A DNA stretch of 64,000 bases. Origin: Candidatus Levybacteria bacterium RIFCSPLOWO2_02_FULL_37_18 (lineage in GTDB: Bacteria > Patescibacteriota > Microgenomatia > Levybacterales > UBA12049). The stretch lies in NCBI GenBank assembly GCA_001784115.1, contig MFPD01000005.1, forward strand, positions 7,074 through 71,073, given 5' to 3'. The notes below the pieces were generated by a model, which searched no databases, was not told the origin of the DNA, and worked only from the letters and a program-made list of their open reading frames with translations. Position numbers and translations under genes: made by a program. Shown here one piece after another: positions 5,467 through 33,002 of the stretch (within the stretch, counting starts at the first letter, position 1; each line of letters begins with the position of its first letter).

Positions 5467-5748
5467 ATGGCTTTTCAAGATCAAACATTACAATGCCGAG
5501 ATTGCGGCAAACAATTTACCTGGACAGCTTCGGAACAAGAATTCTATCAGCAAAAAGGTTTTCAAAACGCTCCGGTCAGATGTCCTGATTGTAGAACTTT
5601 AAAAAAGGCTCGAATGAACAATCAAGACCGACCACGAGAAATGAATGAGATAACATGCGCGGAGTGCGGAAGAAAAGACACAGTACCGTTTGTACCGCGA
5701 GGTGACAGACCGGTACTTTGTCGAGATTGCTTTAGAAAAGGAAAATAA
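5467..5748 (+). CDS. double zinc-ribbon protein (four CxxC pairs), basic C-terminus
   Basis: CRDCG...CPDC and CAECG...CRDC motifs; 93 aa. Confidence 0.6.
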   Translation: MAFQDQTLQCRDCGKQFTWTASEQEFYQQKGFQNAPVRCPDCRTLKKARMNNQDRPREMNEITCAECGRKDTVPFVPRGDRPVLCRDCFRKGK

Positions 5749-5844
5749 AAAGGGTTTAATCGGATCCCGTTCTACATTGCAAGACCCGCTCAGCGAGTCT
5801 TGTTACTTTAGTTGAGAGTTTATTTTCTTTCGCTAAGTGAAAGT

Positions 5845-5898
5845 CGGCTCCGAATCTAAATAAATATTCAAGATTATACTGAGCCGACTTTCAATTGT
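5845..5898. terminator. long-stem hairpin (gaaagtcggctc...gagccgactttc) between convergent genes; possible bidirectional terminator
   Basis: 12-bp perfect inverted repeat with AT-rich loop, between the 3' ends of 5467..5748(+) and 5921..(-). Confidence 0.4.
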
Positions 5899-5920
5899 CT
5901 TGCAAGTGGAAACAGGATCC

Positions 5921-8062
5921 TTATTTATTTGTAGCGGATTTAGTAGACGTAAGAGCAGGAATGGCAATCGGAGGTTTTTTCTCCGGCAATTGAGTAGTTG
6001 GTTTGTTTATCCCCAGCTTGTCTGTTGGTTTCTCAGCTGCTTTTTTCGCTTCTTCTGCTTGAGTTTTTCCCGTTTGAATCTTTTTTTCTACGCTGTCAAT
6101 TTCCACTTGAATTTTGGAACTATTGGCAGTATCAGAGGCAACTAATGTCTTAACGGTTTTATATTGCGTTAAAGCTTCCTCTAAATCGCCTTTGCTTTCT
6201 AATGCATGGCCTAAATTGTAATAACCGTTTGGCAGGTCCGGTTTTAGAGAAATTGCGATTTGGAATTGTCTTTGGGCATTATCCCATTGTCCAAGCTGGT
6301 AATAGACTCCGCCAAGGTAGATATATTGCTGCGGGTTATTTGAATCTAAAGCTTGTGCTTGTTGAGAAGCGAGTATCGCAAAGTTTTCCGCGCTCTGACC
6401 AAAGCCGATTAGGCTTCTGTAGATAGAGGAAAGATTTTCCCAGTTTTGCGAAGTTTTGGGAGAAAGACTAGTTGCTGTTTTAGCCGATTCAATTGCCTGT
6501 TGGATGAGCCTGTAAATAGTAGCTTGGGTTTGCGTATTGTCACTGCTGCCTTTTTGCTGGTTAGCTATAAATGCCGCCACGGCTATATTGGTTTGCGAGA
6601 ATACCCGGTAGTATCCGTCTCTGTACGGAAAGAGTTTGATAGCACTGTTTTGATAATCATATGTTTGAGAACCGAGGTTTTTTGAAGCCGCAACGACCGA
6701 TTTCTGAAACAAAACATCCGAGGCAACATAGAGATAGGTATAATATCCAAGCGCCAACGAAACTCCTGCCAGCAGTAAAAAAAATACTGCCGGGAGGAAT
6801 TTTCCTCTTTCTTGCGGTTTTGAGTCCACGTTTTCGATAGCAAACATTCCCCTTTTTAAAGCTACAAAATATATTTCTATGTCAAAAATACTCTGAGGAT
6901 TTGTTCCTATTGCTGCTTCGGAAACGGCAAAAAGCCCCAAAATGACAAAAAAGAGCGTAATAATAGTCGGCGAAAACGGCAAGACAAGACTTGCCGCCAA
7001 TAAGAGAAGGAGAGACAAAGAATATGGATTTTTAGAATAATTTCCTCCGGTGAAATACCCAAGGGGATGTGTTGTCTTAATGACTTTTACGGCGATATAT
7101 AGAAATGATACAAGTCCTAATACTCCGGTAGTTGCTAAGAGTTCCAAGACAAAACTTGAGGACCGGTAAAACGTTAAAGACCACATATTTGGATTTAGAT
7201 TAAACTGTGCTTGTTTAAATTTGGTAAAAACGCTGGCAAACGTGCCGAATCCCGATCCGAATAAAAATCCTTGAAACAATCTTTGAGAATCCTGAGAAAT
7301 AGAAGCAAAAGCGGTCTGAAAACCGGTTGAGAAGGGAAGGATAAGTGCTTTTTGCGGGAAAGCCAAAGCATACAGCGTAACACTTGTCCCGATAAGCGTT
7401 AGAAGTGTAGTGATAGCCAGCAATAAAAATTGCGGATCTTTTATTTGCTTTTGGAGATTTTTGATGTTTGTCTTTCTTATTCCATCAGGAAAAAGCATGG
7501 GAAAGAAGAATATTCCCAAAGCCAAAGTAATTACTAAAAAGAGAGCCTGATCGATAAGTGATCCAAACGGGCTGAAAAACTGGGTTTTGGTGTAAGAAAG
7601 CGGCAGTATATAGATTTTAAAATAGGAAAACGTGATAATAACAGAAACAACGCTGCTTGCTGAAAGGAGTACTAAAATCGAAAAAATCGCGTCAAATTTA
7701 GTCCTGAGATGATTTACAATAGCAAAGAAAAGAAGGACTGAAAAAAGAAACGGAAACAGGCTAATAATAGAATCAATTCTATTGGGTGAGAAGAAAGCAG
7801 AAACGGCGACAAAAAGAGTAAAGAGTAAGACCGGTACGTCAAAAAATGTCCTTCGAATCCTTACTGTCCCATCCTGAATCGATTTTAGTCCGATAAGAAG
7901 AATTCCCAAAAGAGAAGCAAAAGCAAGGAGAGTTTGTTTTGGCACGCTAAAAATGTCTGTGGTTTGGTTGGTCAAAATAAGCGGAAAGCCGATTAAAAAT
8001 ATGCCTAAAACAGCCAAAGAAACAAGATGTAAAGTAGAAAAATTCTTTAGTTTTAATTTCAT
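5921..8062 (-). CDS. polytopic membrane protein (O-antigen ligase / Wzy-like region) with C-terminal TPR repeats and Lys/Pro-rich tail; ORF extends open to 8335, ATG (MKLKLKNF) at 8062 preferred
   Basis: many TM helices; TPR-like LGHALESKGDLEEALTQYK; classic basic-then-hydrophobic N-terminus at MKLKLKNFSTLHLVSLAVLGIFLIGF. Confidence 0.6.
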   Translation of the reverse strand: MKLKLKNFSTLHLVSLAVLGIFLIGFPLILTNQTTDIFSVPKQTLLAFASLLGILLIGLKSIQDGTVRIRRTFFDVPVLLFTLFVAVSAFFSPNRIDSIISLFPFLFSVLLFFAIVNHLRTKFDAIFSILVLLSASSVVSVIITFSYFKIYILPLSYTKTQFFSPFGSLIDQALFLVITLALGIFFFPMLFPDGIRKTNIKNLQKQIKDPQFLLLAITTLLTLIGTSVTLYALAFPQKALILPFSTGFQTAFASISQDSQRLFQGFLFGSGFGTFASVFTKFKQAQFNLNPNMWSLTFYRSSSFVLELLATTGVLGLVSFLYIAVKVIKTTHPLGYFTGGNYSKNPYSLSLLLLLAASLVLPFSPTIITLFFVILGLFAVSEAAIGTNPQSIFDIEIYFVALKRGMFAIENVDSKPQERGKFLPAVFFLLLAGVSLALGYYTYLYVASDVLFQKSVVAASKNLGSQTYDYQNSAIKLFPYRDGYYRVFSQTNIAVAAFIANQQKGSSDNTQTQATIYRLIQQAIESAKTATSLSPKTSQNWENLSSIYRSLIGFGQSAENFAILASQQAQALDSNNPQQYIYLGGVYYQLGQWDNAQRQFQIAISLKPDLPNGYYNLGHALESKGDLEEALTQYKTVKTLVASDTANSSKIQVEIDSVEKKIQTGKTQAEEAKKAAEKPTDKLGINKPTTQLPEKKPPIAIPALTSTKSATNK

Positions 8063-8458
8063 GTTTTTGAGTGTATATTTACTGTAACAACGAAAAAATA
8101 TCTTGTCAATAGATCGAAATATAACAAAGTTGTCATACCCGCTGACATTAAACAGGTTTAATCTATGCGCCAGGTAAAAAGCTGATAAGCATGTTCCGCC
8201 GGTTAAGAAAAATGAGCTAGCAAATGATGCACTAAAAAAAAGCTGTAAAATTGTAATCTGGTGTGGTAGCAAGATAGCCTTATTATTAAGGCTATACATG
8301 GTATCCCCAAACCTGTAATGCTCTATGCCAGGCATTTTTGACAGTTTTGGGCAGCGATAACTTAGGGAAATAACTAACGATTTCAGAAATTGTTAGGTAC
8401 TTAAAAATATCTTGGTAATGGGCATGGGTAAGTATACGGCCAATAATCCACCTTTTTT

Positions 8459-21558: not shown

Positions 21559-21675
21559 TGGGCAGGATTGAACCTATTTGGATAGATCTGTATAGGTTTA
21601 CTATTAAACTATGAAGACTTTTCACAGACTTGTCAAGAGGCAAATAATCTTATCATAAACTTATCAGGAGATTAA

Positions 21676-24600
21676 TTAATTTACTATTAACCAATTAAAG
21701 GGAATATCAGTTTTGGGTTGGTTGTTTACTCCCACAGTAAATGATTCATTTGGTACTTGGCGAAGGAGATACAAAACTTCATTATTTGTGTTGCCGTTTG
21801 GCGTGATATAAATAAGTGATTTTTCCGTCACCAAACTATTTCTAATGGTGAGTTCGGATTGGTATGCACTTATGGTAGCAATTCCTGCAGAGCCTGTGGC
21901 AATGATTTCCGAACTTGACAGAGCTAAAGCTTTACTGATCGGGCTTAGATTAAGCTTAGAAAATGTGCCGGAGCCTGAGGCTACTACATTTCCTTGTTCA
22001 CTCACTGCAAAAACAGCAGAGCCGGAAGCATTGGTAACAGTAAGCGTTTTTTCAAATGTAGCATTGCCTTTTACTTGCATATTTCCTTCGATATCAAACG
22101 TAATTAATCCGCCAAGGAAGTTAATACCTCCTTGTCTTAGCGGTTGGATTTCCAGACTGCTATCTAGCACATTAATAGAGTTATCTGTTAAAACAAGGCC
22201 GGTATTTGGGCTGCCGATACTAACAGTTCCTGTAAACGAGGCATCGGTAAAGGTGGAGGGACCGAGAGAAATAAAGCCATAATTAAACTTCGGAAAACTC
22301 AGAATACTCGGAGAATCAGATGAATTCAGATTTTTCAGATAATCAGATACGCTAAGGTTGTCTGCAATAATTGTTCCGGCGCGTAGAACTCCTCCAATGC
22401 TTGCATTACCACTATTGTTAAATTGTTCTATTGTTAAATTGTTAAATTGTCCAGATTGAGCTGTAAGTTGGCCTGAGAACGAGGCGTTGCCTGTACTATC
22501 TATAGTAGCAACAGCGCTGCCGGAGGCGTTTTGGACCTCCACGATAATGTCATTGCGAGGAGACACGTCTGACGTGTTCGACGAAGCAATCCCTTGAGAT
22601 TGCTTCGCTCCGCTCGCAATGACGAGTCTTCCGTTCACCACTACCGAATCAGAAGACAAGGGAGAAATGGTATCGGTATGGATTTGGTCAACGTAAGCAA
22701 TGGGAGAAACAACCTTAGTATCTAGTATTAAGTATTTAGTATTTAGTATATTCGTATTAAGCGTATCAATAGTTCCATTGGCAGCAGTGAGTGTTTGAGT
22801 TGCGAGCTCGGAAGTTTTGATAGAGCCTTCTACTGCGAGTTCTTTGGCATGAATGTAGCCGGCTTCTAGATTTGCAATAACAGCCTTACTAAAAGTTCCA
22901 ATACGATTTATAAGTTGGTCTGTTGCCTTGTTGTTTAAAGAAAATGATATGGTTTGGTCCTGTTGTGTTATAGTTTGGGGAACAGAACCAAATGTCGGAT
23001 CAAGATCAATCGAGAGATTACCGGTGTCAGTAAGATAAACATCGGGGTCGTGAAATGAAGGCTGGAGGATCGTGTTCACGATGCAGATATTATTGTCATT
23101 GTGAGGAGTACCGAGCTTGTCGAAGGATGACGAAGCAATTCCATCTGAAGTAGATTGCTTCACTTCGTTCGCAATGACAGAACAAGAAGGTTCTGAAAGG
23201 GCTCGGCCCACCACTCTTCCTGCCCGGGTTGCTTTCATGGCAACTCCAGGAACAGAACTGTTAGTAAGATAGTCTCCGGGTTTTATGTCTCCGCTCTCGG
23301 TCGAAACTTTTAAAGGCAACTGGCCAAGGAGGCCGACTAAAACATAGTTTGGGTCATTGTCATGGTCGCTTCCGCCGACAAAACCGGCTCTGTCTGAGAC
23401 AATTCCGAGGATATTATTGTTTGTTTGATCACACTTACCAACACCGCCGTCTTCTGCCAGACAGACAAGGTCACCGGGTTCAAAAGATTGCTTCGTCCTC
23501 CACGCTTCGCTCTGAGTCCTCGCAATGACATTACTTTTTCTAAAGTATTCTGCAAAGTCAACGCCGGTTGTGGAGTATTTGACTCCCCCTCCAAAACTTT
23601 GGATTTTTCCCTGAATCTGGCCGTTTCCATCCAGAAACGTAGTAAAATAATTTGTGTTTGATCCTGTTGTAAAACCTAATTTTAAAGCCAAGGCAACAGA
23701 ATTAGCACCTGTATCGGTATTTTCAATCATGGCTACTGCAGTTGCAGATTGACTATCGGAAACATGCAGTTTATAGGCAGGATTTGTGGTACCAATTCCA
23801 ACATTGCCGGTTGTACCCGAGACTAAAAATTTAGCAGCAGCAGTTGAATTTCCGCCAACCAGCAGATCATCAGTTATATTTGTCGGCGCAACTGTTCCAA
23901 GTGATCGTAAAAACGGCGGAGTCTGCCAGGTTGGAACACCGCCTAAGACAGTCAAAACTTGATTTGACGAGCCAATACTTCTTTTTGAAAGCGAAGTGGG
24001 ATTGGAAGATGCGGCATATAAAATATCGCCGGTTGAGTAGGTGGTTAGACCTGTTCCGCCATAATTTGCTTTTATTGATGTTGCCTGCCATGTGCCTGTT
24101 GAAATAGTTCCAACTTGTGTTAGAGAAGAATTTACAACAGCAGTTCCCAAAGTAGTTGCAGAGAGAACATCAGTTGCGTTAATTTGATAGGTTTTGCCGG
24201 AAGACAAGTTCATTGTGCCGGTATTTAGCACAGTGCCCGAACCATTGAGAGGGGAAAGAGTAATATTTCCGGTTGTATTTCCGCCGATAGTTAGGCTATT
24301 ATTCCCTGTTGTTTGAATACTTCCTGCTCCGGTTCTAAAACTTAAAGAACCGGATACAGAGGCACTTCCTGCTATATCAAGAAATGCAGAAGGGGTAGAA
24401 GTGCCAAAACCAATATTTCCTCCTTGAGTAATAACAAGATAGGAATTGGGGTTTGGCGTTGTTCCATTTACGCCAATTTGCAAATTGCCGGAAGTTGTAG
24501 AAATAGAAACAGCATAATCGAGTGTTTGTCCGCAGCCATCAGTAGTTGTGCATTGAACATGCAAAGAAGAAGGACCTACATATAGACTTTTAAATCGGGC

Positions 24601-26985
24601 AGAAGAGGATGCGCCCAAGTCAGTAACATTATCGGTTTGCGGGCCAAAATAGCCTGTGGCTTGAGAGTTTTTGGGATTGACAAGAATATTGCCGGTATTT
24701 GTTCCGCCAAGTGTGAGCGTTTGGTTATTGGTAGTTTGAATAAGGCCAGATACGTTATCAAAGGTAAAGTTGCCTTTGGAAATAATATTGCCGGATAAAC
24801 CTTCGATTCTCAGTTTTGATGAGTCAGACGCGGTTCCTCCAAGTATAAGATCATCGGTTGAATTCAAAGGCGAAATTACCTGGCTGTTTCTTTGCCACCA
24901 GCCCTGGGTTCCGGAAATAAGAGTGGGAAATACATTTTGAGTATAAATATTTTTCCAAGAAGCAAGAGGAGAGCCGATAGTATAAAGTCCGGTGTCAACA
25001 GGCGTAATATTTCCTTTGATATCAAGCGCATTTTGGGGAGCTGCAGTACCAATGCCAACCCAGCCGTCGCTGTCAATAACAAACTTGGTTGCGCCTGAGC
25101 TTGAAGCGGTAATAAGATCACCGGAGCTATTATTATTCACAATAAAAGAGGCAACCGCTGATTCAGTCGCGTTGATAATTACTTTATCGTCTATTTCAAC
25201 TGCTCCAGGGTTAAATTCTCCATTCATGGAGCTATTTATAATTGGTTTTTGAATATCAACAGAGCCAAACCCGTCAGGAGAAAGCTCGATATTGCCATTT
25301 GAACCCGGCACCGTGTTGAGAATTACAGACTTTCCGGAAAGTGTGAAAGTGCCGCCTGTGGCTTGAAATGTGGGAGAAGCATTTTGTCCGATGACTAAAT
25401 TTCCCGATGAGTTAAGAGACAGAACAACATTTTTTGCATCACCTTGGGTAATGGGCGAAAGTCCATCAAGAGTAAGAGCGTTTTGAGAGAATTGGGTGGT
25501 TGGGATTTGCTGACGGGGAGATAATTCTTCATCCGAGCCGACCTGAATGCCTAAAAAAAGCTTTTCGTTTTCAGAAAAAATAGATTCGGAAAGAGGGTTA
25601 TTTATTCCAAGTACAACAGAAAATGTTCCGTCAGAATTGGGACTTATGGTATGAACTTCTTTCCAAATTAAAGAATTTGAGAAATTGGTTGGGTGATTAT
25701 ACAAAGAAAAAGTTACATCTTTTGGGGAATTGATTGGATTATTGAGCCGATCCAGGAGTTTGCCTGTAAAAAAAAGAGTTTTTGGAGAAATATGAGTAGA
25801 AAGAATGGCTTTTGGCGGCGAATGTAAAAAATCAGTCTTATCGAAAAAGAATAATGTGCCACTCGTAACAATAATTATTAAAATGGAAAAATGAATATAG
25901 CTTGAAATTGGTGAAGCATGATATTGTTTGTACCATTTTGGTCTTTTGTGTTTGAGAAAAACAATTAATTTTTTATGGAAAGGAAGATAAGAAGTAGAGA
26001 TGGGCGCGTAAAAACTTTTGGGAATATTAGGAATATATGAAGATGATTGTTTTTGAAACAGTTTTAGAAAAGAGCTTTGTTTTTTTGCTTGATTGGCTTT
26101 TGCGAATTTTATTTTTTTTCTTAAAAAAAGAGATTCTGTCTGATTCACTAAAGCAGCCAGAGGAATGATAAAAAGATATTCCAGTATATAGTTTGATGCT
26201 TTAAGTAGTTTTTGGAATAGGCGGATGGGAGGGAAGCGAGAAAATAAATTGTCATTGCGAGGGTTTGAAAAACCCGAAGCAATCTCGAGATTGCTTCTCT
26301 CACTTTGTTCGCTCGCAATGACAGTGGGTTTATATTTTACATTCGATTCTAGGTCATCTACAGGTTTGATTATGCCTTCTTTTTCTATCCAGGCAAGATA
26401 TTTTCTTAGTGATGAGAGTTTTCTGTTGATAGATTTTGGAGCAAGCTTGGCTTCGTGAAGCAGTCTGTATTTGTATTCGTTAAAAAGAGAAGAGTCAATT
26501 TTTCTTAAGACATCTTGTTCTTTTAGGTTCCATGCATGGATTGCGCCGGTTACACGCTCTGCCCATTTTAAAAACTGGAGCACATCGTTAGTATAGTTTT
26601 TTATAGTAAGATTTGATGCGTTATAGACATACAAGTAGTTTTTAAATTCTTTTATGTGCCATATGTCTTCCTTTTTTGGAGAGGCGGGTAGAGATTTGTT
26701 AAAAGGATCTTTTAGAACAAGTCCTTCTAGTTTTAAGAAGCGAAAAAAGCTTCTCAAGGAAGACATATGTCTTTTAACTGTTTTAGGCGAAAGAGAAGTT
26801 TTTTCTTTTTTATAGATTTCGATAATGTGAGGAGTTATTTCCGGGGGGTTGAAGGTTTTATGAAAGGACTCTTGAAACCAACGGATAAACTGTCCTACAT
26901 CTGCCTTATAGTTTTTGACAGTTATTTTTGAAGGCTGTTTTTTCTGAGACTTCAAGAAAAGAATAAACGGTTGTAATAGATTCAT
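21676..26985 (-). CDS. giant surface protein (1769 aa): two tandem phage-integrase N-terminal SAM-like (core-binding) domains, in-frame palindromic element, TM helix (YIHFSILIIIVTSGTLFFF), giant ectodomain, conserved DFAEYFRK domain, C-terminal domain ending NWLIVN
   Basis: SAM-like pattern ITVKNYKADVGQFIRWF...LSPKTVKRHMSSLRSFFRFLKLEGLV and LTIKNYTNDVLQFLKW...APKSINRKLSSLRKYLAWIEKEGII; no stop between these and the TM/ectodomain. Confidence 0.75.
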   Translation of the reverse strand: MNLLQPFILFLKSQKKQPSKITVKNYKADVGQFIRWFQESFHKTFNPPEITPHIIEIYKKEKTSLSPKTVKRHMSSLRSFFRFLKLEGLVLKDPFNKSLPASPKKEDIWHIKEFKNYLYVYNASNLTIKNYTNDVLQFLKWAERVTGAIHAWNLKEQDVLRKIDSSLFNEYKYRLLHEAKLAPKSINRKLSSLRKYLAWIEKEGIIKPVDDLESNVKYKPTVIASEQSERSNLEIASGFSNPRNDNLFSRFPPIRLFQKLLKASNYILEYLFIIPLAALVNQTESLFLRKKIKFAKANQAKKQSSFLKLFQKQSSSYIPNIPKSFYAPISTSYLPFHKKLIVFLKHKRPKWYKQYHASPISSYIHFSILIIIVTSGTLFFFDKTDFLHSPPKAILSTHISPKTLFFTGKLLDRLNNPINSPKDVTFSLYNHPTNFSNSLIWKEVHTISPNSDGTFSVVLGINNPLSESIFSENEKLFLGIQVGSDEELSPRQQIPTTQFSQNALTLDGLSPITQGDAKNVVLSLNSSGNLVIGQNASPTFQATGGTFTLSGKSVILNTVPGSNGNIELSPDGFGSVDIQKPIINSSMNGEFNPGAVEIDDKVIINATESAVASFIVNNNSSGDLITASSSGATKFVIDSDGWVGIGTAAPQNALDIKGNITPVDTGLYTIGSPLASWKNIYTQNVFPTLISGTQGWWQRNSQVISPLNSTDDLILGGTASDSSKLRIEGLSGNIISKGNFTFDNVSGLIQTTNNQTLTLGGTNTGNILVNPKNSQATGYFGPQTDNVTDLGASSSARFKSLYVGPSSLHVQCTTTDGCGQTLDYAVSISTTSGNLQIGVNGTTPNPNSYLVITQGGNIGFGTSTPSAFLDIAGSASVSGSLSFRTGAGSIQTTGNNSLTIGGNTTGNITLSPLNGSGTVLNTGTMNLSSGKTYQINATDVLSATTLGTAVVNSSLTQVGTISTGTWQATSIKANYGGTGLTTYSTGDILYAASSNPTSLSKRSIGSSNQVLTVLGGVPTWQTPPFLRSLGTVAPTNITDDLLVGGNSTAAAKFLVSGTTGNVGIGTTNPAYKLHVSDSQSATAVAMIENTDTGANSVALALKLGFTTGSNTNYFTTFLDGNGQIQGKIQSFGGGVKYSTTGVDFAEYFRKSNVIARTQSEAWRTKQSFEPGDLVCLAEDGGVGKCDQTNNNILGIVSDRAGFVGGSDHDNDPNYVLVGLLGQLPLKVSTESGDIKPGDYLTNSSVPGVAMKATRAGRVVGRALSEPSCSVIANEVKQSTSDGIASSSFDKLGTPHNDNNICIVNTILQPSFHDPDVYLTDTGNLSIDLDPTFGSVPQTITQQDQTISFSLNNKATDQLINRIGTFSKAVIANLEAGYIHAKELAVEGSIKTSELATQTLTAANGTIDTLNTNILNTKYLILDTKVVSPIAYVDQIHTDTISPLSSDSVVVNGRLVIASGAKQSQGIASSNTSDVSPRNDIIVEVQNASGSAVATIDSTGNASFSGQLTAQSGQFNNLTIEQFNNSGNASIGGVLRAGTIIADNLSVSDYLKNLNSSDSPSILSFPKFNYGFISLGPSTFTDASFTGTVSIGSPNTGLVLTDNSINVLDSSLEIQPLRQGGINFLGGLITFDIEGNMQVKGNATFEKTLTVTNASGSAVFAVSEQGNVVASGSGTFSKLNLSPISKALALSSSEIIATGSAGIATISAYQSELTIRNSLVTEKSLIYITPNGNTNNEVLYLLRQVPNESFTVGVNNQPKTDIPFNWLIVN
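22549..22623. repeat. palindromic element (gtcattgcgag...ctcgcaatgac) in frame in giant gene 3 (VIASGAKQSQGIASSNTSDVSPRND)
   Basis: both termini present, inner gaagcaatc / gattgcttc arms. Confidence 0.8.
23096..23179. repeat. palindromic element (gtcattgtgag...cgcaatgac) in frame in giant gene 3
   Basis: termini plus inner gaagcaatt / agattgcttc arms. Confidence 0.75.
23487..23529. repeat. half palindromic element (gattgcttcgtcctccacgcttcgctctgagtcctcgcaatgac), identical to the right half of the intergenic copy at 27646-27692
   Basis: exact 43-nt identity with 27646..27692. Confidence 0.8.
26252..26323. repeat. palindromic element in frame between the SAM-like domains and the TM of giant gene 3 (VIASEQSERSNLEIASGFSNPRND)
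   Basis: gtcattgcgag...gaagcaatctcgagattgcttc...ctcgcaatgac. Confidence 0.8.
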
Positions 26986-27580
26986 GTTTGTATAATCAAT
27001 GTCTTTTACTTTTGTCTCGGTAGAAGAGTTGTTTTTGTTGGGCCTCGAGATTATACGAATTATACGGGTGTTTAATGATAGAAATTAATAAACTGTCATT
27101 ATTAAGAGTAGACTTTATATATCAAATTGTCAATAACCTAGAGTAAGCTAAAATTGATATAATTTTATATCTTAATATATGGTAAAAATTTTCATATTTT
27201 TATATTCCGGAGTTTTTAGCTTTGTTACGTCTTTAATTATCTTCACAAATTTCAAGTTCGGTTTTTATTCCGAATATTTTCTTATTTTTTAACTATATAC
27301 AAATATAGCATAAGAATGAATGTGGAGAAGAGTTCTAATTTTATTTTTTGATGACTATGTCCTATAGCTAGTATTACGCATAATAAAATTATATGCTATT
27401 TTAGCAATCGAAGATAAAAAGTGCCACACTATTTTTATGAGGAGATTTGGTTATAGATGTAATAAAAATGCAGGAAAATGCTTCATATTATTTTTCATAA
27501 GACACGCTCAAATTGCTTAGAATCTAAGGCTGTTTAGGATAAAAAACAAAACTAATTATACGGCTAAATAGTACATCACA

Positions 27581-27706
27581 CGAATTTCGCAGTTGTCATT
27601 GCGAGCGACCAAGTCAGACTTGGGAAGCGTGGCAATCTCATTGATGGGAGATTGCTTCGTCCTCCACGCTTCGCTCTGAGTCCTCGCAATGACAACTGCG
27701 AAATTC
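27581..27706. repeat. full-length (about 126 bp) two-tier palindromic element with extended arms cgaatttcgcagttgtcattgcgag / ctcgcaatgacaactgcgaaattcg; likely the intact form of the family
   Basis: perfect 25-nt terminal inverted repeats plus inner gcaatctc / gattgc arms; intergenic, upstream of the giant-gene block. Confidence 0.85.
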
Positions 27707-27754
27707 GTAATTAGGTTGAGAAGTGGGATGGAGGATGGGGGAATGAGGGCAGTT

Positions 27755-28705
27755 TTATTGATGTTTTTTGATCCTTTTTATAACAAAAAGAATCAGAATA
27801 AAAATACCAACAATTTCTCCGGTTTCTTTTAAAGGCAAGACAACGAATTGGACGCTTCGGGTAAATGTAGGGCCATGTTTGGACAAGGCAAGGGTAAGAC
27901 GCGCCGTATACGGTCCCAGGAGAAAGCCGTTTTGCCAAGACAATTTTGTCAGGTCACCCTCTGTGACTAAAAGTTTTTCCGAGTCTATGAGAATAGGTGA
28001 TTGTTTGATTCCTATTGCTCCAACTGTTTGAGAAAACATATTTTTGATCGTGATTATACCTTGAGGAAGTATCGCGTGACTGCCCGTGTTTCTAACTCTG
28101 AGCGTAAACGGAATCGGGCCTTTCTGAGAGAAGAAAGGACCGGAAAACTCTTCTATGGTGCCTTTCGGAGAAGAAGAAATGTTTTGAATTGAAAGTAGTA
28201 TATGGCTTGCAATTATTACTTGTGCTTTTGTAATAGTTTCTTTTTTCTCAAAAGTACTCGGTTCTGGATTAGATATAAAAAGAATAGAAAAATAATAGTC
28301 TGATTCTGTTTGTTCGGTAGGAATGTGGAGGGAAAAGGTAAGCGTTTTCTTTTGAAACGGTCCGAGTAATATCTTGTTGGTTGGCTCGTCGTCTTCTAAA
28401 ATGGTAACTTTTTTTAGAATATCCGGGTCTGGCTTTTTGTCAAAGTTCTCAAGATAGGATACATTTCCTTGACTGTCTTTGGCCCGAAATGGTTTGAGAA
28501 GAATTTCAAATTCCATTGGCTGCTCGGTACGGTTTTCTATACTAAGAGGCGTTTTGATAGTGTTGGGTGCTTTGGTTTGAATGGTAATAGAAGGCGGAGA
28601 AACTCTGAGCGATACCGAAGTTGCATATGCCTTGTTTAAAGGCAAAAGTGACATCCATGTCATTCCGAGCAAAGCGAAGAATCTTTTTAAATTTAAATTT
28701 TTCAT
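27755..28705 (-). CDS. secreted protein with N-terminal signal peptide and C-terminal TM anchor (IVGIFILILFVIKRIKKHQ); possible surface-assembly accessory protein
   Basis: signal MKNLNLKRFFALLGMTWMSLLPLNKAYA; part of the signal (RFFALLGMT) is encoded by a TGTCAT half-element at 28659-28683. Confidence 0.6.
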   Translation of the reverse strand: MKNLNLKRFFALLGMTWMSLLPLNKAYATSVSLRVSPPSITIQTKAPNTIKTPLSIENRTEQPMEFEILLKPFRAKDSQGNVSYLENFDKKPDPDILKKVTILEDDEPTNKILLGPFQKKTLTFSLHIPTEQTESDYYFSILFISNPEPSTFEKKETITKAQVIIASHILLSIQNISSSPKGTIEEFSGPFFSQKGPIPFTLRVRNTGSHAILPQGIITIKNMFSQTVGAIGIKQSPILIDSEKLLVTEGDLTKLSWQNGFLLGPYTARLTLALSKHGPTFTRSVQFVVLPLKETGEIVGIFILILFVIKRIKKHQ

Positions 28706-28709
28706 AAAT

Positions 28710-28857
28710 CTATTTGCTCGGGTCGATACAGAAAATTTCTTCGCGCCCGGCTTGGTTCAACTTTTACGTCTTCTGATCCACGTTACGGCTGTATTCCTTG
28801 GATGAATTACAGTTTATTCGCACATGCAAAATTTTGTATCTCCCCTCGCCTTAAACA
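28710..28857. repeat. 148-bp element, copy A (about 85% identical to 33748..33894)
   Basis: shared blocks ttcgcgcccggcttggttcaa, cttctgatccacgt, ttattcgcacatgc.aaatttt. Confidence 0.8.
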
Positions 28858-28868
28858 GTATAACAATT

Positions 28869-29606
28869 TTAATATGTCGGTACTGCGATATAAGTAACTG
28901 TGTTCGAGTACTGATTTGGTTTGAAGGTATTTGATATGTTTATTTTATAGATAATTTCTGATTTGCCGGTGGTTGTGTTAGCTGTTGCTCTTAGAACAGT
29001 TTGAGGAGATTGCTGTTTGGAATTATTGGCAAAATGCTTAAAGGTCTCGGGAATTAAAAAGTCATCCGCGCAATCCGAAGATATAAGATTGTCACAGCGG
29101 TAGCCGAATCCATACGTCAAAATATTTGACCACGTTGAGGCAATATCTTCTTTGCAAAAGCCGTCGTCGCAGGTAGTATCCGGAATTATGTCCGGGCTTA
29201 CCGCATTAATAAGTTCGTGGTTTTCATAAGCCGTAACAAAGTACCCAATAGATTTTGACCGGTTGGTAGAAAGAGTCGTGGTGCGGATGATAGGATTCGT
29301 TGGGGTAAGCATGCCAAAGTTGATTGTTGTATCGGAAACGGAAAATTCAAAGAAATCATCCGTGGTTATTATTGAAAAGGTTTTTTCTCCCTCCGGGGGA
29401 GGGGTAATAACCGGAATTTTTTGAGTTTGTTCTGCGGTTTGTTTGAGCTCAATTGTGTAATTGTCAGAAGACATGCTTTCAGCTCCTACAGAGCTGGAAA
29501 ATAATCCAATAAACGAATAAACGAATAATTCAATAAATAGCACAAGAATTTTTAATTTGAAATTTTTAATTTGAAATGAATTTTTAAAATTTAATTTTTT
29601 AAACAT
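28869..29606 (-). CDS. secreted beta-rich protein with signal peptide, 4 Cys, C-terminal YSNTVTYIAVPTY; hypothetical cell-surface component
   Basis: N-terminal hydrophobic signal KLKILVLFIELFVYSFIGLFSSSVGA; lies upstream of the giant-gene block on the same strand. Confidence 0.5.
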   Translation of the reverse strand: MFKKLNFKNSFQIKNFKLKILVLFIELFVYSFIGLFSSSVGAESMSSDNYTIELKQTAEQTQKIPVITPPPEGEKTFSIITTDDFFEFSVSDTTINFGMLTPTNPIIRTTTLSTNRSKSIGYFVTAYENHELINAVSPDIIPDTTCDDGFCKEDIASTWSNILTYGFGYRCDNLISSDCADDFLIPETFKHFANNSKQQSPQTVLRATANTTTGKSEIIYKINISNTFKPNQYSNTVTYIAVPTY

Positions 29607-29674
29607 TTTAATTTTATTGTCTTGCGAAGTAATATCCTGCTTCGCAGGAAAAATTGTAAATTTAAAATTAAAAA

Positions 29675-30130
29675 TTAATTCTTGGTTCCTTGTATTTCCT
29701 TGCTGTGTTCTCGGCCAAAAAAGAATGCTAAGGGTGAGACAAGAACAATTGATCCTACCTTTGCAATGTTTTCATATACAGCATTTGAAAGAATTTCCGG
29801 AAGAAATATAGCCACAATTCCCAGTACAAATACAAAAACAGTTGTCGGTTCAAAGACAAATACCAACCCAAACGTGATAAAATAAAGAAGAAAAAATAAG
29901 CCGGATGACAATTTACCGGTTATAAAAACAAAAAAAAGCACAATGGTAATAACGCCAAAAATAGCCAAGGGTTCTGGAATATGTTTTTTTCGAAACAAAA
30001 GAAATGCATATAATCCTGCCGCGATTATTCCCAGGATGAGATATATTGCATTAGAAAAAGGAAGAATATCGCGGACAAAAACAATTGCACAGGCTGTCAA
30101 AATAAGGAAGGATTGGTATAACAATTTCAT
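29675..30130 (-). CDS. small integral membrane protein (4 predicted TM helices), hypothetical
   Basis: hydrophobic segments throughout; 151 aa. Confidence 0.5.
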   Translation of the reverse strand: MKLLYQSFLILTACAIVFVRDILPFSNAIYLILGIIAAGLYAFLLFRKKHIPEPLAIFGVITIVLFFVFITGKLSSGLFFLLYFITFGLVFVFEPTTVFVFVLGIVAIFLPEILSNAVYENIAKVGSIVLVSPLAFFFGREHSKEIQGTKN

Positions 30131-30185
30131 GCTTGTAAGGGAAAACTATAACTATTATACTTAATATACCTATTATAACGATTAT

Positions 30186-33002
30186 ATGAAAGACTACAAG
30201 CCTTTGGAAATTGAGGTTAAGTGGAAAAAAATGTGGGACGAGAAAAAAATATACAGCCCTGATTTGGACAGCGTAAAAAGGCCATTTTATAACCTGATGA
30301 TGTTTCCCTATCCGTCTGCGGAAGGACTTCACGTAGGCTCGGTCTTTACATTCACCGGCGTTGATACATACGGAAGATTTAAACGCATGCAGGGATTTGA
30401 TGTCTTCGAACCCATGGGACTTGACGGGTTTGGAATTCACAGTGAAAACTATGCCTTAAAAGTGGGCCGCCATCCAAAAGAACAGGCAAAACGATCAGAA
30501 GAGAACTTTTATCGACAGCTTTCTTCTATTGGAAATGGGTTTGACTGGAGCAGAAAACTAGAAACATATGATCCAAACTATTACAAATGGACTCAATGGA
30601 TCTTTATACAGCTCTTTAAAAGAGGACTTGCATACAGAAAAAAAGCTCCGGTAAACTTCTGTCCTTCATGTAAAACAGTTCTTTCGGATGAGCAGGTCAT
30701 TGATGGGAAATGCGAGAGGTGTGGTTCGGTTGTCGAAAAAAGAGAGCTTGAACAATGGTTCTTTAAAATCACTGACTATGCAGAGCGACTTTTGAATAAT
30801 ATCCCAAAGTTGAACTGGACAGAAAAAGTTAAGATTGCCCAAAGGGATTGGATCGGAAAGCGGGAAGGAACCACAATCCGCTTTGTCATTGCGAGGACCC
30901 AGAACGAAGTGAAGGGGACGAAGAAATCTCAAAAAGATCAGATTATCATGGGTTCTGCGAACCCTCGCAATGACAGTCAATATATTGAGGTTTTTACCAC
31001 ACGGGGCGATACGCTGTATGGGGCGACGTTTATTGTTTTGGCACCCGAGCACCCGGTCGTCGCTTCGCTCCTCCGGAATTCAGAATTAGAAAAGATACGA
31101 AAGTACGTTGAGGAGGTCAAAAAGAAAACGGAGATTGAAAGGGGAGCACAAGGGAAAGAGAAGACAGGGGTATTTACCGGTTTATACGCGATCAATCCGA
31201 TTAATAATGAATCAATTCCTGTATGGATTGCAGATTACGCGTTGATGGGTTATGGCACAGGAGCATTATTTGGAGATGCGCATGACGAGCGGGACGTAGC
31301 GTTTGCTAAAAAATATGGAATTCCTCTAAAAGCAACTCTTATTACAGGAGACAAAGAAAGAGACGAGCGTATTCTAAAGCTTGAAGAATGTTTTACCGGA
31401 GACGGGACATTGGTTGATTCGGGGGAATTTTCAAGGTTGTCTTCACAGCAAGCACGGGAAAGAGTAGCAGAATGGCTCGAAAAGAATAAAAAAGGAGGCA
31501 GAAAAGTAACGTATCATCTTCGCGACTGGCTTATTAGCAGGCAGAGATACTGGGGGCCGCCGATACCGATGATCTACTGTCAAAGTTGTGCAGGTAAAGG
31601 CAGATCTTGGTTTAATTCCATTGACAGTAAAGAAGAGAATGTATCAAGTATTAAGTATAAGGTATCAAGCAAGGACGGGAAATTTCTTAATACTAAATAC
31701 GTAATACATACTACTGATGACATGGTAGGATGGTATCCAATTCCCGAGGAAGACCTGCCTGTCATCCTGCCCGATGTCCAAGATTGGAGGCCTGAAGGAA
31801 CCGGAGTCTCGCCCTTGGCAAATCATCCGGAATTTTATAAAACAACGTGTCCTAGTTGCGGTGGAAAAGCAAGGCGGGAAACAGACGTCTCGGATACATT
31901 TTTAGATTCTGCTTGGTACTTTTTTAGGTATTTAGCAACGGAGATACATGATGTGCCGTTTCCTTCGGAAGGGTTCATAAATTCCAAATCAACAAATCAA
32001 CAAATCAACAAATCAACAAATTTGATGATTGGAAATTGGAAATTGGAAATTGGAAATTTCGCGAAGCGAGTAAAGTGGCTTCCCGTAACTATGTACATTG
32101 GCGGAGCAGAACATTCGGTTCTCCACCTATTATACTCCAGGTTTATTACTATGGCGTTTAAGGATTTGGGTTTGATTGATTTTGAAGAGCCGTTTGCTCG
32201 GTTTTACGCACATGGACTTATTATTAAAGATAGAGCGAAAATGAGCAAAAGCAAAGGCAATGTCATAAATCCGGACGAGTATTTGGCAAAATACGGCGCA
32301 GATGTTTTACGGGCGTATTTAAGGTTTGTAGGGCCATTTGATATGGGAGGCGATTTTAGGGACAGCGGAATTGAGGGAATGCAGAGATTTTTGAAACGAG
32401 TTTGGAGATTGGTTAATGATGTCATCGCGAGCGAAGCGAAGCAATCTTCTGACCCGAAAGAGATTGCTTCGCCCTCCTTTGGCGAGGCTCGCAATGACAA
32501 TGAGGGAAAACGAGTAATGAATAGGATAATCAAGGGAGTAACAGATGATCTGGAGGCTCTGCGATTTAATACTGCCATGGCAAAGCTGATGACGTGGTAT
32601 AACTATCTTTCTCAGCAAAAAAATGTAAGTAAAAAAGAGCTTGAGACATTTTTAAAGCTTCTGGCGCCTATTGCGCCTTTTATAACCGAGGAATTATATC
32701 AAAATGTCATTGCGAGTCCGGAGGGCGCTGCAATCTCAGATGACGGAAGTTTTCGATCTGTTCATCTTCAACCGTGGCCGTCATACGAGCCTAAGATGCT
32801 GGAAGAAGGAGAAGTAACAATTGTGGTTCAGGTGAATGGGAAAGTTCGTGATTCGTTCACAGTTCATAGTTTACAGTTCACAGAACAAAGCAAAGTTGAA
32901 AAGAAAGCAAAAGAGAGTTCAAAGATAAAAAAGTATATAGAGGGGAAAAAGATTAAGAAAGTCATTTATGTTGAGGGGAAAATTATCAATTTTGTCGTCT
33001 AA
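30186..33002 (+). CDS. leuS: leucyl-tRNA synthetase, carrying three in-frame palindromic-element insertions and one heptamer-repeat insertion
   Basis: LeuS N-terminus MKDYKPLEIEVKWKKMW...FPYPSAEGLHVGSVFTF; KMSKSKGN motif; VKWLPVTMYIGGAEHSVLHLLYSRF. Confidence 0.9.
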   Translation: MKDYKPLEIEVKWKKMWDEKKIYSPDLDSVKRPFYNLMMFPYPSAEGLHVGSVFTFTGVDTYGRFKRMQGFDVFEPMGLDGFGIHSENYALKVGRHPKEQAKRSEENFYRQLSSIGNGFDWSRKLETYDPNYYKWTQWIFIQLFKRGLAYRKKAPVNFCPSCKTVLSDEQVIDGKCERCGSVVEKRELEQWFFKITDYAERLLNNIPKLNWTEKVKIAQRDWIGKREGTTIRFVIARTQNEVKGTKKSQKDQIIMGSANPRNDSQYIEVFTTRGDTLYGATFIVLAPEHPVVASLLRNSELEKIRKYVEEVKKKTEIERGAQGKEKTGVFTGLYAINPINNESIPVWIADYALMGYGTGALFGDAHDERDVAFAKKYGIPLKATLITGDKERDERILKLEECFTGDGTLVDSGEFSRLSSQQARERVAEWLEKNKKGGRKVTYHLRDWLISRQRYWGPPIPMIYCQSCAGKGRSWFNSIDSKEENVSSIKYKVSSKDGKFLNTKYVIHTTDDMVGWYPIPEEDLPVILPDVQDWRPEGTGVSPLANHPEFYKTTCPSCGGKARRETDVSDTFLDSAWYFFRYLATEIHDVPFPSEGFINSKSTNQQINKSTNLMIGNWKLEIGNFAKRVKWLPVTMYIGGAEHSVLHLLYSRFITMAFKDLGLIDFEEPFARFYAHGLIIKDRAKMSKSKGNVINPDEYLAKYGADVLRAYLRFVGPFDMGGDFRDSGIEGMQRFLKRVWRLVNDVIASEAKQSSDPKEIASPSFGEARNDNEGKRVMNRIIKGVTDDLEALRFNTAMAKLMTWYNYLSQQKNVSKKELETFLKLLAPIAPFITEELYQNVIASPEGAAISDDGSFRSVHLQPWPSYEPKMLEEGEVTIVVQVNGKVRDSFTVHSLQFTEQSKVEKKAKESSKIKKYIEGKKIKKVIYVEGKIINFVV
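30885..30974. repeat. palindromic element (90 bp, 30 aa, in frame) inside leuS: VIARTQNEVKGTKKSQKDQIIMGSANPRNDSQ
   Basis: gtcattgcgag...ctcgcaatgac termini. Confidence 0.8.
31985..32060. repeat. heptamer tandem repeats (caaatca x4 then ggaaatt x4) in frame inside leuS (KSTNQQINKSTNLMIGNWKLEIGNF)
   Basis: direct 7-bp repeats visible in sequence. Confidence 0.85.
32422..32499. repeat. palindromic element (78 bp, 26 aa, in frame) inside leuS: VIASEAKQSSDPKEIASPSFGEARND
   Basis: gtcatcgcgagcgaagcgaagcaatc...gattgcttcgcc...ctcgcaatgac. Confidence 0.85.

Follow-up and report, generated by a model that had tools for sequence, protein, structure and literature searches.

Tandem recombinase-type core-binding domains on a predicted membrane-anchored giant protein of Candidatus Levybacteria, and a repeat element in its leader

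Why should a giant protein with a predicted outside fibre carry, at its N-terminus, a pair of domains of the kind with which recombinases hold DNA? The question is raised by a gene for 1769 amino acids (aa) within a 64,000-nucleotide stretch of Candidatus Levybacteria bacterium RIFCSPLOWO2_02_FULL_37_18 (contig MFPD01000005.1, positions 7,074 to 71,073), referred to below as the window. In an earlier note, made from the letters of this window, two tandem integrase-type SAM-like domains were described as fused in frame, through one transmembrane (TM) helix, to a large surface protein; the interval 25830-26985 given there corresponds to aa 1-385, from the first core-binding (CB) domain to the TM helix. 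The protein is recorded as NCBI OGH22711.1, and in other records, as a 'hypothetical protein' of Candidatus Levybacteria metagenome-assembled genomes. We found that the fusion is the norm in a large protein family, and that its gene follows a repeat element almost private to that family. The CB pair is predicted to face the cytoplasm, and its own leader may be its target.

By Pfam analysis of aa 1-250, a strong match to Phage_int_SAM_1 (PF02899) was observed, with an E-value of 2.8e-23 and 82.4 bits against a cutoff of 22.3, in two stretches of which the best covered aa 7-88; the SAM_4 and SAM_5 models likewise matched this region. The NCBIfam models of XerC, XerD, XerA and XerS matched twice, at aa 7-97 and aa 109-213, solely by their N-terminal 100 or so positions and at scores far under the whole-protein cutoffs (83 versus 335 bits). 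When the true Xer protein P0052 was compared with the window by tblastn, matches were obtained only at 26985-26674 and 26607-26368, that is, at both CB domains, with its first 107 residues. The catalytic part of P0052 found no match anywhere in the 64-kb window, and by Pfam and NCBIfam neither the PF00589 catalytic domain nor the R-K-H-R-H-Y residues were detected in the whole 1769-aa protein, in agreement with the earlier statement that the window holds no catalytic integrase. As the catalytic domain is absent, the protein is no recombinase, and the name 'site-specific integrase' carried by its homologues is a misannotation. The two CB domains are internal duplicates of each other (30% identity, E 1e-11), and a helix-2 motif, T[VI]KNYxxDV, and a helix-4 motif, SSLR, are common to both.

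A model of the 420 N-terminal residues was built by AlphaFold2 with a 20-sequence alignment. Two four-helix bundles were predicted at aa 4-86 and 111-202 with a predicted local distance difference test score (pLDDT) above 90, followed by disorder at 220-245, a long helix at 252-309 and the TM helix at 359-388. By Foldseek, the best fold matches in PDB were recombinase CB domains, including 3nrw, XerA (5hxy), Tn1549 Int, IntI (2a3v) and lambda Int. Chain '14' of PDB 9i5v ('RaiA', P. gingivalis), the best sequence match of CB1, was set aside, as just 34 residues of another region are modelled in this entry; it says nothing on RNA binding.

The orientation in the membrane was then judged from hydrophobicity and charge. 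A single hydrophobic maximum was found at aa 363-381. The residues before it (330-362) include seven Lys or Arg and no Asp or Glu, and all of the N-terminal part is basic, with a pI of 10.3 for CB1, 9.4 for CB2, and 10.4 and 10.2 for the juxtamembrane segments. The cytoplasmic part thus has a net charge of about +35, whereas the 1384-aa ectodomain has a net charge of -31 (pI 4.8). One TM helix with a basic N-side, an acidic C-side and no signal peptide points to an N-in/C-out type-II anchor, and the CB domains are accordingly predicted on the cytoplasmic side of one membrane helix, as the earlier note had supposed. Between codons 135 and 280, and again between 280 and 428, no in-frame ATG, GTG or TTG was found, and codon 280 has no Shine-Dalgarno sequence. 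In the absence of internal starts, any TM-containing product must begin upstream of conserved protein sequence. An internal translation start near the TM helix was thus ruled out, leaving the CB region and the TM helix as parts of one chain. Of the two outcomes that the earlier note named as refuting it, a missing SAM-like match and a start downstream of the TM helix, neither was observed.

Homologous fusions were found in great number. A word-indexed search gave 52 relatives of 32-51% identity, mostly named 'site-specific integrase, partial', most of them cut by contig ends, which is the reason for the 'partial' labels. In their alignment the same order was observed throughout: two CB domains, a hypervariable linker, YSxFPPxRLxQK, YAPLxISTK...RPxWYKxYHSY, the TM helix, PPRILSFQGRLTD and a conserved start of the ectodomain. 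With one genome taken per species, 292 stretches encoding relatives were recovered; 80 of these were kept, among which the informatively titled records belong to Levyibacteriota or Patescibacteria. Seventy-five family loci were examined for reading frame. In 61 of them, no stop interrupts the frame begun by the CB domains for 685 aa or more, the longest exceeding 3790 aa, and a TM helix near aa 320-440 is present in almost every case. The remaining 14 were shorter, mostly because of a contig end; in L079-L082, four distant relatives, a stop is reached within 167 codons. When 1.84 billion representatives were searched exhaustively with a profile, 544 clusters at 50% identity (E<=1e-30) were obtained, with full lengths of 1200-6048 aa; in nearly all of the best 150 of the 544, profile position 1 was aligned with residue 1, and the few clusters aligning best from the TM region still have the N-terminus with two CB domains. 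The fusion is, therefore, the norm in a large Levyibacteriota family. Furthermore, the identical 1769-aa protein is encoded on 14 contigs from several samples, which shows that the gene is no assembly artefact. Together with the one frame kept across the family, this upholds the earlier view that a chance read-through is unlikely.

The mean pairwise identity among 28 complete members was 41% for CB1, 43% for CB2, 14% for the linker, 52% for the pre-TM motif and 32-48% for parts of the ectodomain. As the CB domains are conserved to an extent comparable with the ectodomain and retain invariant motifs, they are under purifying selection, and the earlier suggestion of a relic of an integrated element has to be given up. 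Some members depart from the common design. CB2 is interrupted by an in-frame stop in three relatives from Shapirobacteria, each time in the same loop after helix 2 (L080 at about 10489, L081 at about 10410, L082 at about 10504); an ATG follows 2-6 codons past the stop, and the remainder of CB2, the TM helix and the giant ectodomain are encoded beyond it without a change of frame, the domain being either split or completed by programmed readthrough. L080 and L082 have the leader repeat described below. At L005 (274-1077), a 267-aa open reading frame (ORF) that has the leader repeat and encodes the two CB domains, but neither TM helix nor ectodomain, runs into uvrB near the contig start; it could be a truncated form, a protein that stands alone, or a chimera produced in assembly. 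No prior description of a fusion of CB domains, TM helix and giant protein was found in the searchable literature, and a preprint on giant genes makes no mention of integrase or DNA-binding domains.

Upstream of the giant genes, short blocks of 80-95% identity are shared, while the proteins themselves are only 30-45% identical. The core of the conserved upstream DNA is a linear element, consisting of two to four direct 9-bp repeats of GTATAAT, a heptamer resembling the promoter -10 element, followed by CTCGAGGCTAA. Its consensus, nearly invariant across 69 loci, is (g)ATAATcnGTATAATCcGTATAAT cTcGagGCTaaa, also written (ATAATnnG)TATAATnnGTATAAT-CTCGAGGCTAA, and the conserved flank of the GTATAAT boxes includes CTCGAGGC. 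In 1.14 Mb of loci (both strands), 71 sites of TATAATN3TATAAT were counted, of which about 66 lie directly upstream of a giant gene of this family. In a metagenome scan that used DNA alone and counted only hits with at least 400 nt downstream, a family gene followed 41 of 43 hits of the full element, compared with 6 of 68 hits lacking the 3' flank. The element is thus almost private to the family with CB domains. Within the window the exact tandem pattern occurs twice (0.8 expected with one mismatch allowed), once in the leader and once in a five-unit array. The latter is situated in the 55-bp gap between leuS and the gene cluster, abutting the divergent leuS start codon. At other loci an array is absent upstream of this first cluster gene; a similar five-unit array, so far unplaced, is carried by L008. 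The repeat (ATAAT..CGTATA) might also be read as loxP- or dif-like, a reading that was not used.

Of the 69 loci, 62 have a perfect TTGACA at a distance of 54-125 bp upstream from where the repeat array ends, with TAnnnT 16-18 bp later; among shuffled controls, 2 of 69 sequences scored as high as a typical real promoter. Given this conserved promoter upstream, the repeats are most likely located in the initially transcribed region. The 770-bp upstream region gave no Rfam match at E<=1, and the 69 anchored leaders were folded by RNAalifold into an open chain, without conserved structure. A structured RNA or riboswitch in the leader was thus rejected; without an RNA fold, the element would act as a linear site, and we regard it as a candidate operator or pause site.

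The earlier note had called the outer part an adhesin. No adhesin domain was found in the ectodomain, nor any homologue of it among solved structures and phage protein families, and the label was not upheld; the ectodomain gave merely a sub-threshold match to the intramolecular chaperone (IMC) domain of Peptidase_G2/S74 type (Table 1), in a segment interrupted by a peptide resembling the repeat element described below. At the equivalent position this domain was above threshold in four of six homologues tested, with 35.5, 35.1 and 26.1 bits for Peptidase_G2 and 55.4 bits for Peptidase_S74. It is internal, at aa 1116-1206 of 1769 and at about 850-930 of about 1400 in the homologues, and about 500 residues follow it. 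From topology and composition we infer a surface protein, and with its internal IMC domain the family appears to form trimeric surface filaments similar to phage fibres.

The next giant gene downstream bears on the function of the CB pair. Its product of 2455 aa carries a MerR helix-turn-helix (HTH) in front of a TM helix and a giant ectodomain (Table 1). Broad homologue search with its N-terminus recovered only its own fragment, while by tblastn three relatives were found in the loci; the design of MerR, TM helix and giant ectodomain is also present at L059 (14276-end) and at L030 (5846-end), where two tandem HTH precede the TM helix. That two unrelated DNA-binding folds occupy corresponding positions in proteins of one design is the strongest indirect evidence for DNA binding as the selected N-terminal function. 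Upstream of the MerR-giant gene (21600-21640, minus strand), TTGACA and TAGTTT are separated by a 19-nt spacer. An over-long spacer between -35 and -10 is a hallmark of MerR-controlled promoters, and the arrangement hints that this gene, too, may be autoregulated.

The MerR-giant gene and a third giant gene are two extra giants inserted in this window relative to the core cluster. In the product of the third, a basic N-terminus of about 70 aa, partly derived from the repeat element, precedes the TM helix, and no recognisable DNA-binding domain was seen there. The core cluster in most loci consists of genes for a protein of 151 aa with five TM helices, a secreted or anchored one of 245 aa, one of 316 aa, the giant protein, and a multi-TM/TPR protein of about 800 aa, and is always divergent from leuS-comEA-comEC. 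In the 316-aa protein, a signal peptide and a C-terminal anchor accompany a weak WxLIP_PGBD match; apart from this weak match, Pfam at relaxed thresholds gave nothing on the operon partners, which may serve to assemble or anchor the fibre. In some loci (L017, about 270-735; L033, about 5500-5960), an ORF of about 155 aa (MS..LIY.DLTY.IR.AIF...) stands between the leader repeat and the giant gene. Its N-terminus may resemble the small four-helix proteins of 23S rRNA intervening sequences.

A short palindromic repeat element, with arms GTCATTGCGAG and CTCGCAATGAC and the peptide signature VIAS..(K)QS..IAS..PRNDN, is scattered over the window. It lies in frame within genes, namely in the linker between CB domains and TM helix and in the ectodomain of the 1769-aa gene, in the MerR-giant gene and in leuS, and is reminiscent of the Rickettsia palindromic elements.

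Table 1. Location in the window of the giant gene, its predicted domains, the leader and neighbouring features
Feature	Position	Strand	Description
Whole gene, 1769 aa	21676..26985	minus	ATG start; two CB domains, linker, basic juxtamembrane region, TM helix, giant ectodomain
CB1, aa 4-97	26695..26976	minus	Phage_int_SAM_1 core-binding domain, four-helix bundle; pI 10.3, net charge +12
CB2, aa 107-212	26350..26667	minus	Second core-binding domain; invariant family motifs TIKNYxxD and NRKLSSL
Linker, aa 213-250	26236..26349	minus	Hypervariable, disordered (pLDDT <50 at aa 220-245); in-frame palindromic element copy at 26251-26322
Juxtamembrane helix, aa 251-310	26056..26235	minus	Opens with conserved (Y)SxFPPxRLxQK; short hydrophobic stretch (aa 263-280) before a very basic part (net +9); likely cytoplasmic and associated with the membrane
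Basic pre-TM motif, aa 325-362	25900..26013	minus	Family consensus YAPLxISTK...RPxWYKxYHSY; 52% mean pairwise identity, highest of all regions
Single TM helix, aa 363-385	25831..25899	minus	N-in/C-out predicted by the positive-inside rule
Extracytoplasmic region (predicted), aa 386-1769	21679..25830	minus	Acidic, pI 4.8; Ser/Thr/Asn/Gly-rich, fibre-like
IMC-like segment (Peptidase_G2/S74), aa 1116-1206	23368..23640	minus	Pfam, 19.9 bits against a cutoff of 25, sub-threshold
Leader element GTATAATTCGTATAATCTCGAGGC	27042..27065	minus	Tandem 9-bp -10-like repeats and conserved 3' flank, 57-80 nt before ATG
Putative sigma70-type promoter	27105..27133	minus	TTGACA 27133-27128, 17 nt, TACTCT 27110-27105
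Five tandem 9-bp TATAAT-like units	30145..30186	minus	Directly upstream of the gene for the 151-aa membrane protein (29675-30130)
Next giant gene, 2455 aa	14191..21558	minus	MerR HTH aa 5-55 (E 2.3e-12), linker, TM aa 160-178, giant ectodomain
Third giant gene, 1600 aa	9364-14166	minus	Six Laminin_G_3, DUF2341, neurotoxin-receptor-binding-like domain
Core cluster partners	27755-30130 and 5921-8335	minus	Same order in most of L009-L079
Palindromic element copies	26251-26322, 22549-22623, 27580-27708, 30885-30974, 32488-32716		Single arms at 1331, 12773, 14800, 21109, 23519

What, then, may the CB pair do? With slightly less than even confidence, we propose that the protein is a membrane-tethered, sequence-specific CB DNA-binding module on a giant type-II fibre, with the repeats of its own leader as the likeliest target and feedback on its own gene as the outcome. 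The CB pair, held at the membrane from the cytoplasmic side by a flexible linker, would bind DNA sequence-specifically, most likely at the direct repeats that its own gene carries in the initially transcribed region, and the binding would feed back on transcription of a very costly gene. The near-identical recognition motifs of both CB domains would fit a repeated half-site. As the protein is inserted co-translationally, its N-terminus would be made beside its own gene, which makes feedback in cis, during insertion of the nascent protein, plausible; the feedback might also be modulated by events at the ectodomain such as host contact or IMC-driven trimerisation or cleavage. This proposal, like the ToxR-like regulation and the membrane tethering of DNA that the earlier note had suggested, gains indirect support from the MerR-giant neighbour, from the precedent of FliZ described at the end of this text, and from the family-private, -10-like leader repeat. 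Its parts are not equally firm. That the CB pair binds DNA is somewhat more likely than not; that it binds the leader repeats is doubtful. In its most far-reaching form, the fibre would control its own gene from the membrane: a nascent CB pair would occupy the triple GTATAAT operator of the very gene copy being transcribed, giving one-at-a-time feedback, and the occupancy of the site would be set by the ectodomain, shifting when the trimer is pulled, cleaved or engaged by a host. We consider this form unlikely.

Several points weigh against the proposed feedback. Both the DNA binding by the CB domains and its target are what we infer, and CB domains separated from the catalytic domain usually have weak affinity for DNA. 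For the footprint of a CB domain, a period of 9 bp is short. The distance between promoter and array varies, the array starting about 10-72 bp past the best-scoring -10 hexamer, and the leader element could be explained without the CB domains, by sigma70 pause sites, by loading of a processivity factor on a gene of 5-18 kb, or by tandem -10 boxes. The scans for the element covered the loci, the window and metagenome contigs. With respect to the fold, the Foldseek probability was about 1.0 but the E-value, at 0.07 for the whole model, was not significant; this weak value arises because the query was the entire 420-residue model, and the identification of the CB domains is accordingly carried by the sequence evidence. 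A second short hydrophobic stretch, at aa 263-280, casts some doubt on the topology. Were it a second TM helix, the fibre would come to lie inside the cell and the most basic loop would be exposed outside, which is implausible; we read it as a membrane-associated or oligomerisation helix.

Other explanations of the same observations were weighed against feedback on the leader. The CB domains might be a module for protein interaction or oligomerisation without contact to nucleic acid, docking the nascent giant protein to a partner in export, assembly or division, while the repeats serve the transcription machinery in sigma70-dependent promoter-proximal pausing, in loading of antitermination or processivity factors on a 5-18 kb gene, or as tandem -10 boxes for very high expression. 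CB domains are known to take part in the protein-protein contacts of recombinase synapses, and -10-like hexamers in early transcribed DNA are known to trigger sigma70-dependent pausing, as at lambda PR' and lacUV5; the position of the repeats downstream of a conserved TTGACA promoter at variable distance, the linear element without RNA structure, and the operon partners, all membrane or secreted proteins, agree with this view. However, the most conserved residues are in the helices that contact DNA in recombinases and FliZ, the CB domains have a pI of 9.4-10.3, and the parallel fusion of a MerR HTH, for which we know of no role besides DNA binding, points to DNA binding as the selected property. 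A CB pair without nucleic-acid contact is, on this balance, unlikely. We also judge unlikely a structural tether, in which the basic CB pair would bind the chromosome with little or no specificity, or at a dif-like site, and couple the nucleoid to the base of the fibre without control of transcription, for positioning, segregation or DNA hand-over near the conserved comEC-comEA neighbours. Such a tether would agree with the strongly basic cytoplasmic part, the closeness of the CB domains to the XerC/XerD type, the comEC-comEA-leuS synteny conserved in many loci, and the adjoining MerR-giant gene, the second of this design. The synteny, however, may merely mirror genome relatedness, ComEA and ComEC are encoded on the other strand as a separate unit, and neither the private, near-invariant leader element nor the invariant recognition-helix motifs would be explained.

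The CB pair could instead bind the RNA form of the element, the GUAUAAU repeats in its own 5' untranslated region, and control translation or mRNA stability co-translationally. The element would be transcribed if the TTGACA-17-TAnnnT promoter is used, the N-terminus emerges beside its own mRNA, and the motif is linear and unstructured; on the other side, no precedent for RNA binding by CB domains is known, and the ribosome entry 9i5v offers none, the modelled segment being unrelated. We consider RNA binding highly improbable. Least credible of all is a decayed integrase fragment, a mis-assembly or a chance untranslated read-through. The homologues annotated 'site-specific integrase, partial', the stop within CB2 of the three Shapirobacteria loci and the L005 ORF running into uvrB could be taken in this sense; against it stand the identical gene on 14 contigs, the single frame in 61 of 75 species loci and nearly all of the best 150 cluster representatives, the invariant motifs, the lack of an alternative start codon, and the contig ends behind the 'partial' labels. 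Relic, read-through and mis-assembly were rejected on these grounds. Feedback by the CB pair on its own leader thus stays our tentative preference.

The surprise of this locus is in the combination of domains, the parallel version with MerR, and the gene-private, operator-like element. Levybacteria and other members of the candidate phyla radiation are believed to live attached to the cells of a host. If the control of the gene by its own fibre were true, the protein would form, with the MerR neighbour, a class of fibre-coupled transcription factors that pass surface contact on to gene expression without two-component systems in ultrasmall episymbionts. A recombinase-derived module or a MerR HTH on giant fibres, combined with a gene-private element, offers a concrete and testable hypothesis of surface-to-DNA coupling, and would add a further case of recombinase parts reused as regulators. 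In addition, a systematic misannotation is corrected, since 'site-specific integrase, partial' is the label of the named relatives, members of a family with hundreds of clusters.

Membrane-tethered DNA-binding proteins are an already known kind. Databases call this protein hypothetical or, wrongly, integrase. The CB fold of Phage_int_SAM_1 originates from XerC/XerD and phage integrases, and the best matches were the N-termini of XerC, XerD and XerA; unlike these enzymes, the window protein lacks PF00589 and R-K-H-R-H-Y, has two CB domains in one chain, and is membrane-anchored. MrpR/YopR of SPbeta and SroF of phi3T, which were among the Foldseek fold matches, are likewise recombinase-derived DNA-binding regulators, but these phage repressors are soluble and retain the fold of the catalytic domain in an inactive form. 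MYRF also unites a DNA-binding domain, a TM helix and a self-cleaving IMC trimerisation domain in one chain. Its IMC domain lies between DNA-binding domain and TM helix, on the cytoplasmic side, and frees the DNA-binding domain, whereas the order in the window protein is DNA-binding domain, TM helix, fibre, and IMC domain in mid-ectodomain; with the IMC domain outside the cell, cleavage cannot release the CB domains, and a MYRF-like release is excluded. In phage tailspikes and tail fibres the IMC domain is C-terminal and is cleaved off by itself once the trimer has folded, whereas here it is internal, with about 500 residues after it.

Two systems come closer. FliZ is a catalysis-free protein with a CB-like domain (helix 2, R108) that represses by binding -10-like elements, one of its sites being located just downstream of the flhDC start and not used as a promoter (PMC3367168). 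The window protein agrees with FliZ in having CB-like domains without a catalytic domain, and in the -10-like GTATAAT boxes downstream of a conserved promoter. With respect to FliZ-type binding by helix 2, T[VI]KNYxxDV was found in both CB domains and -10-like repeats in the leader, a correspondence at the level of sequence. FliZ, however, is small and soluble, with one CB-like domain and a global regulon, whereas the window protein has two CB domains, is predicted to be membrane-tethered and is giant, and its candidate site is private to one gene. ToxR, TcpP and CadC likewise are single polypeptides in which one TM helix joins a cytoplasmic DNA-binding domain at the N-terminus to an extracytoplasmic domain; theirs are an OmpR-type winged helix and a small outside sensor domain, whereas the window family has tandem CB domains (MerR in the neighbour) and a fibre of 1,000-5,700 aa with an IMC domain. 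By analogy, the window protein is most like a hybrid of FliZ, in its domain and possibly its type of site, and of ToxR/CadC, in its topology, set on a phage-fibre-like ectodomain.

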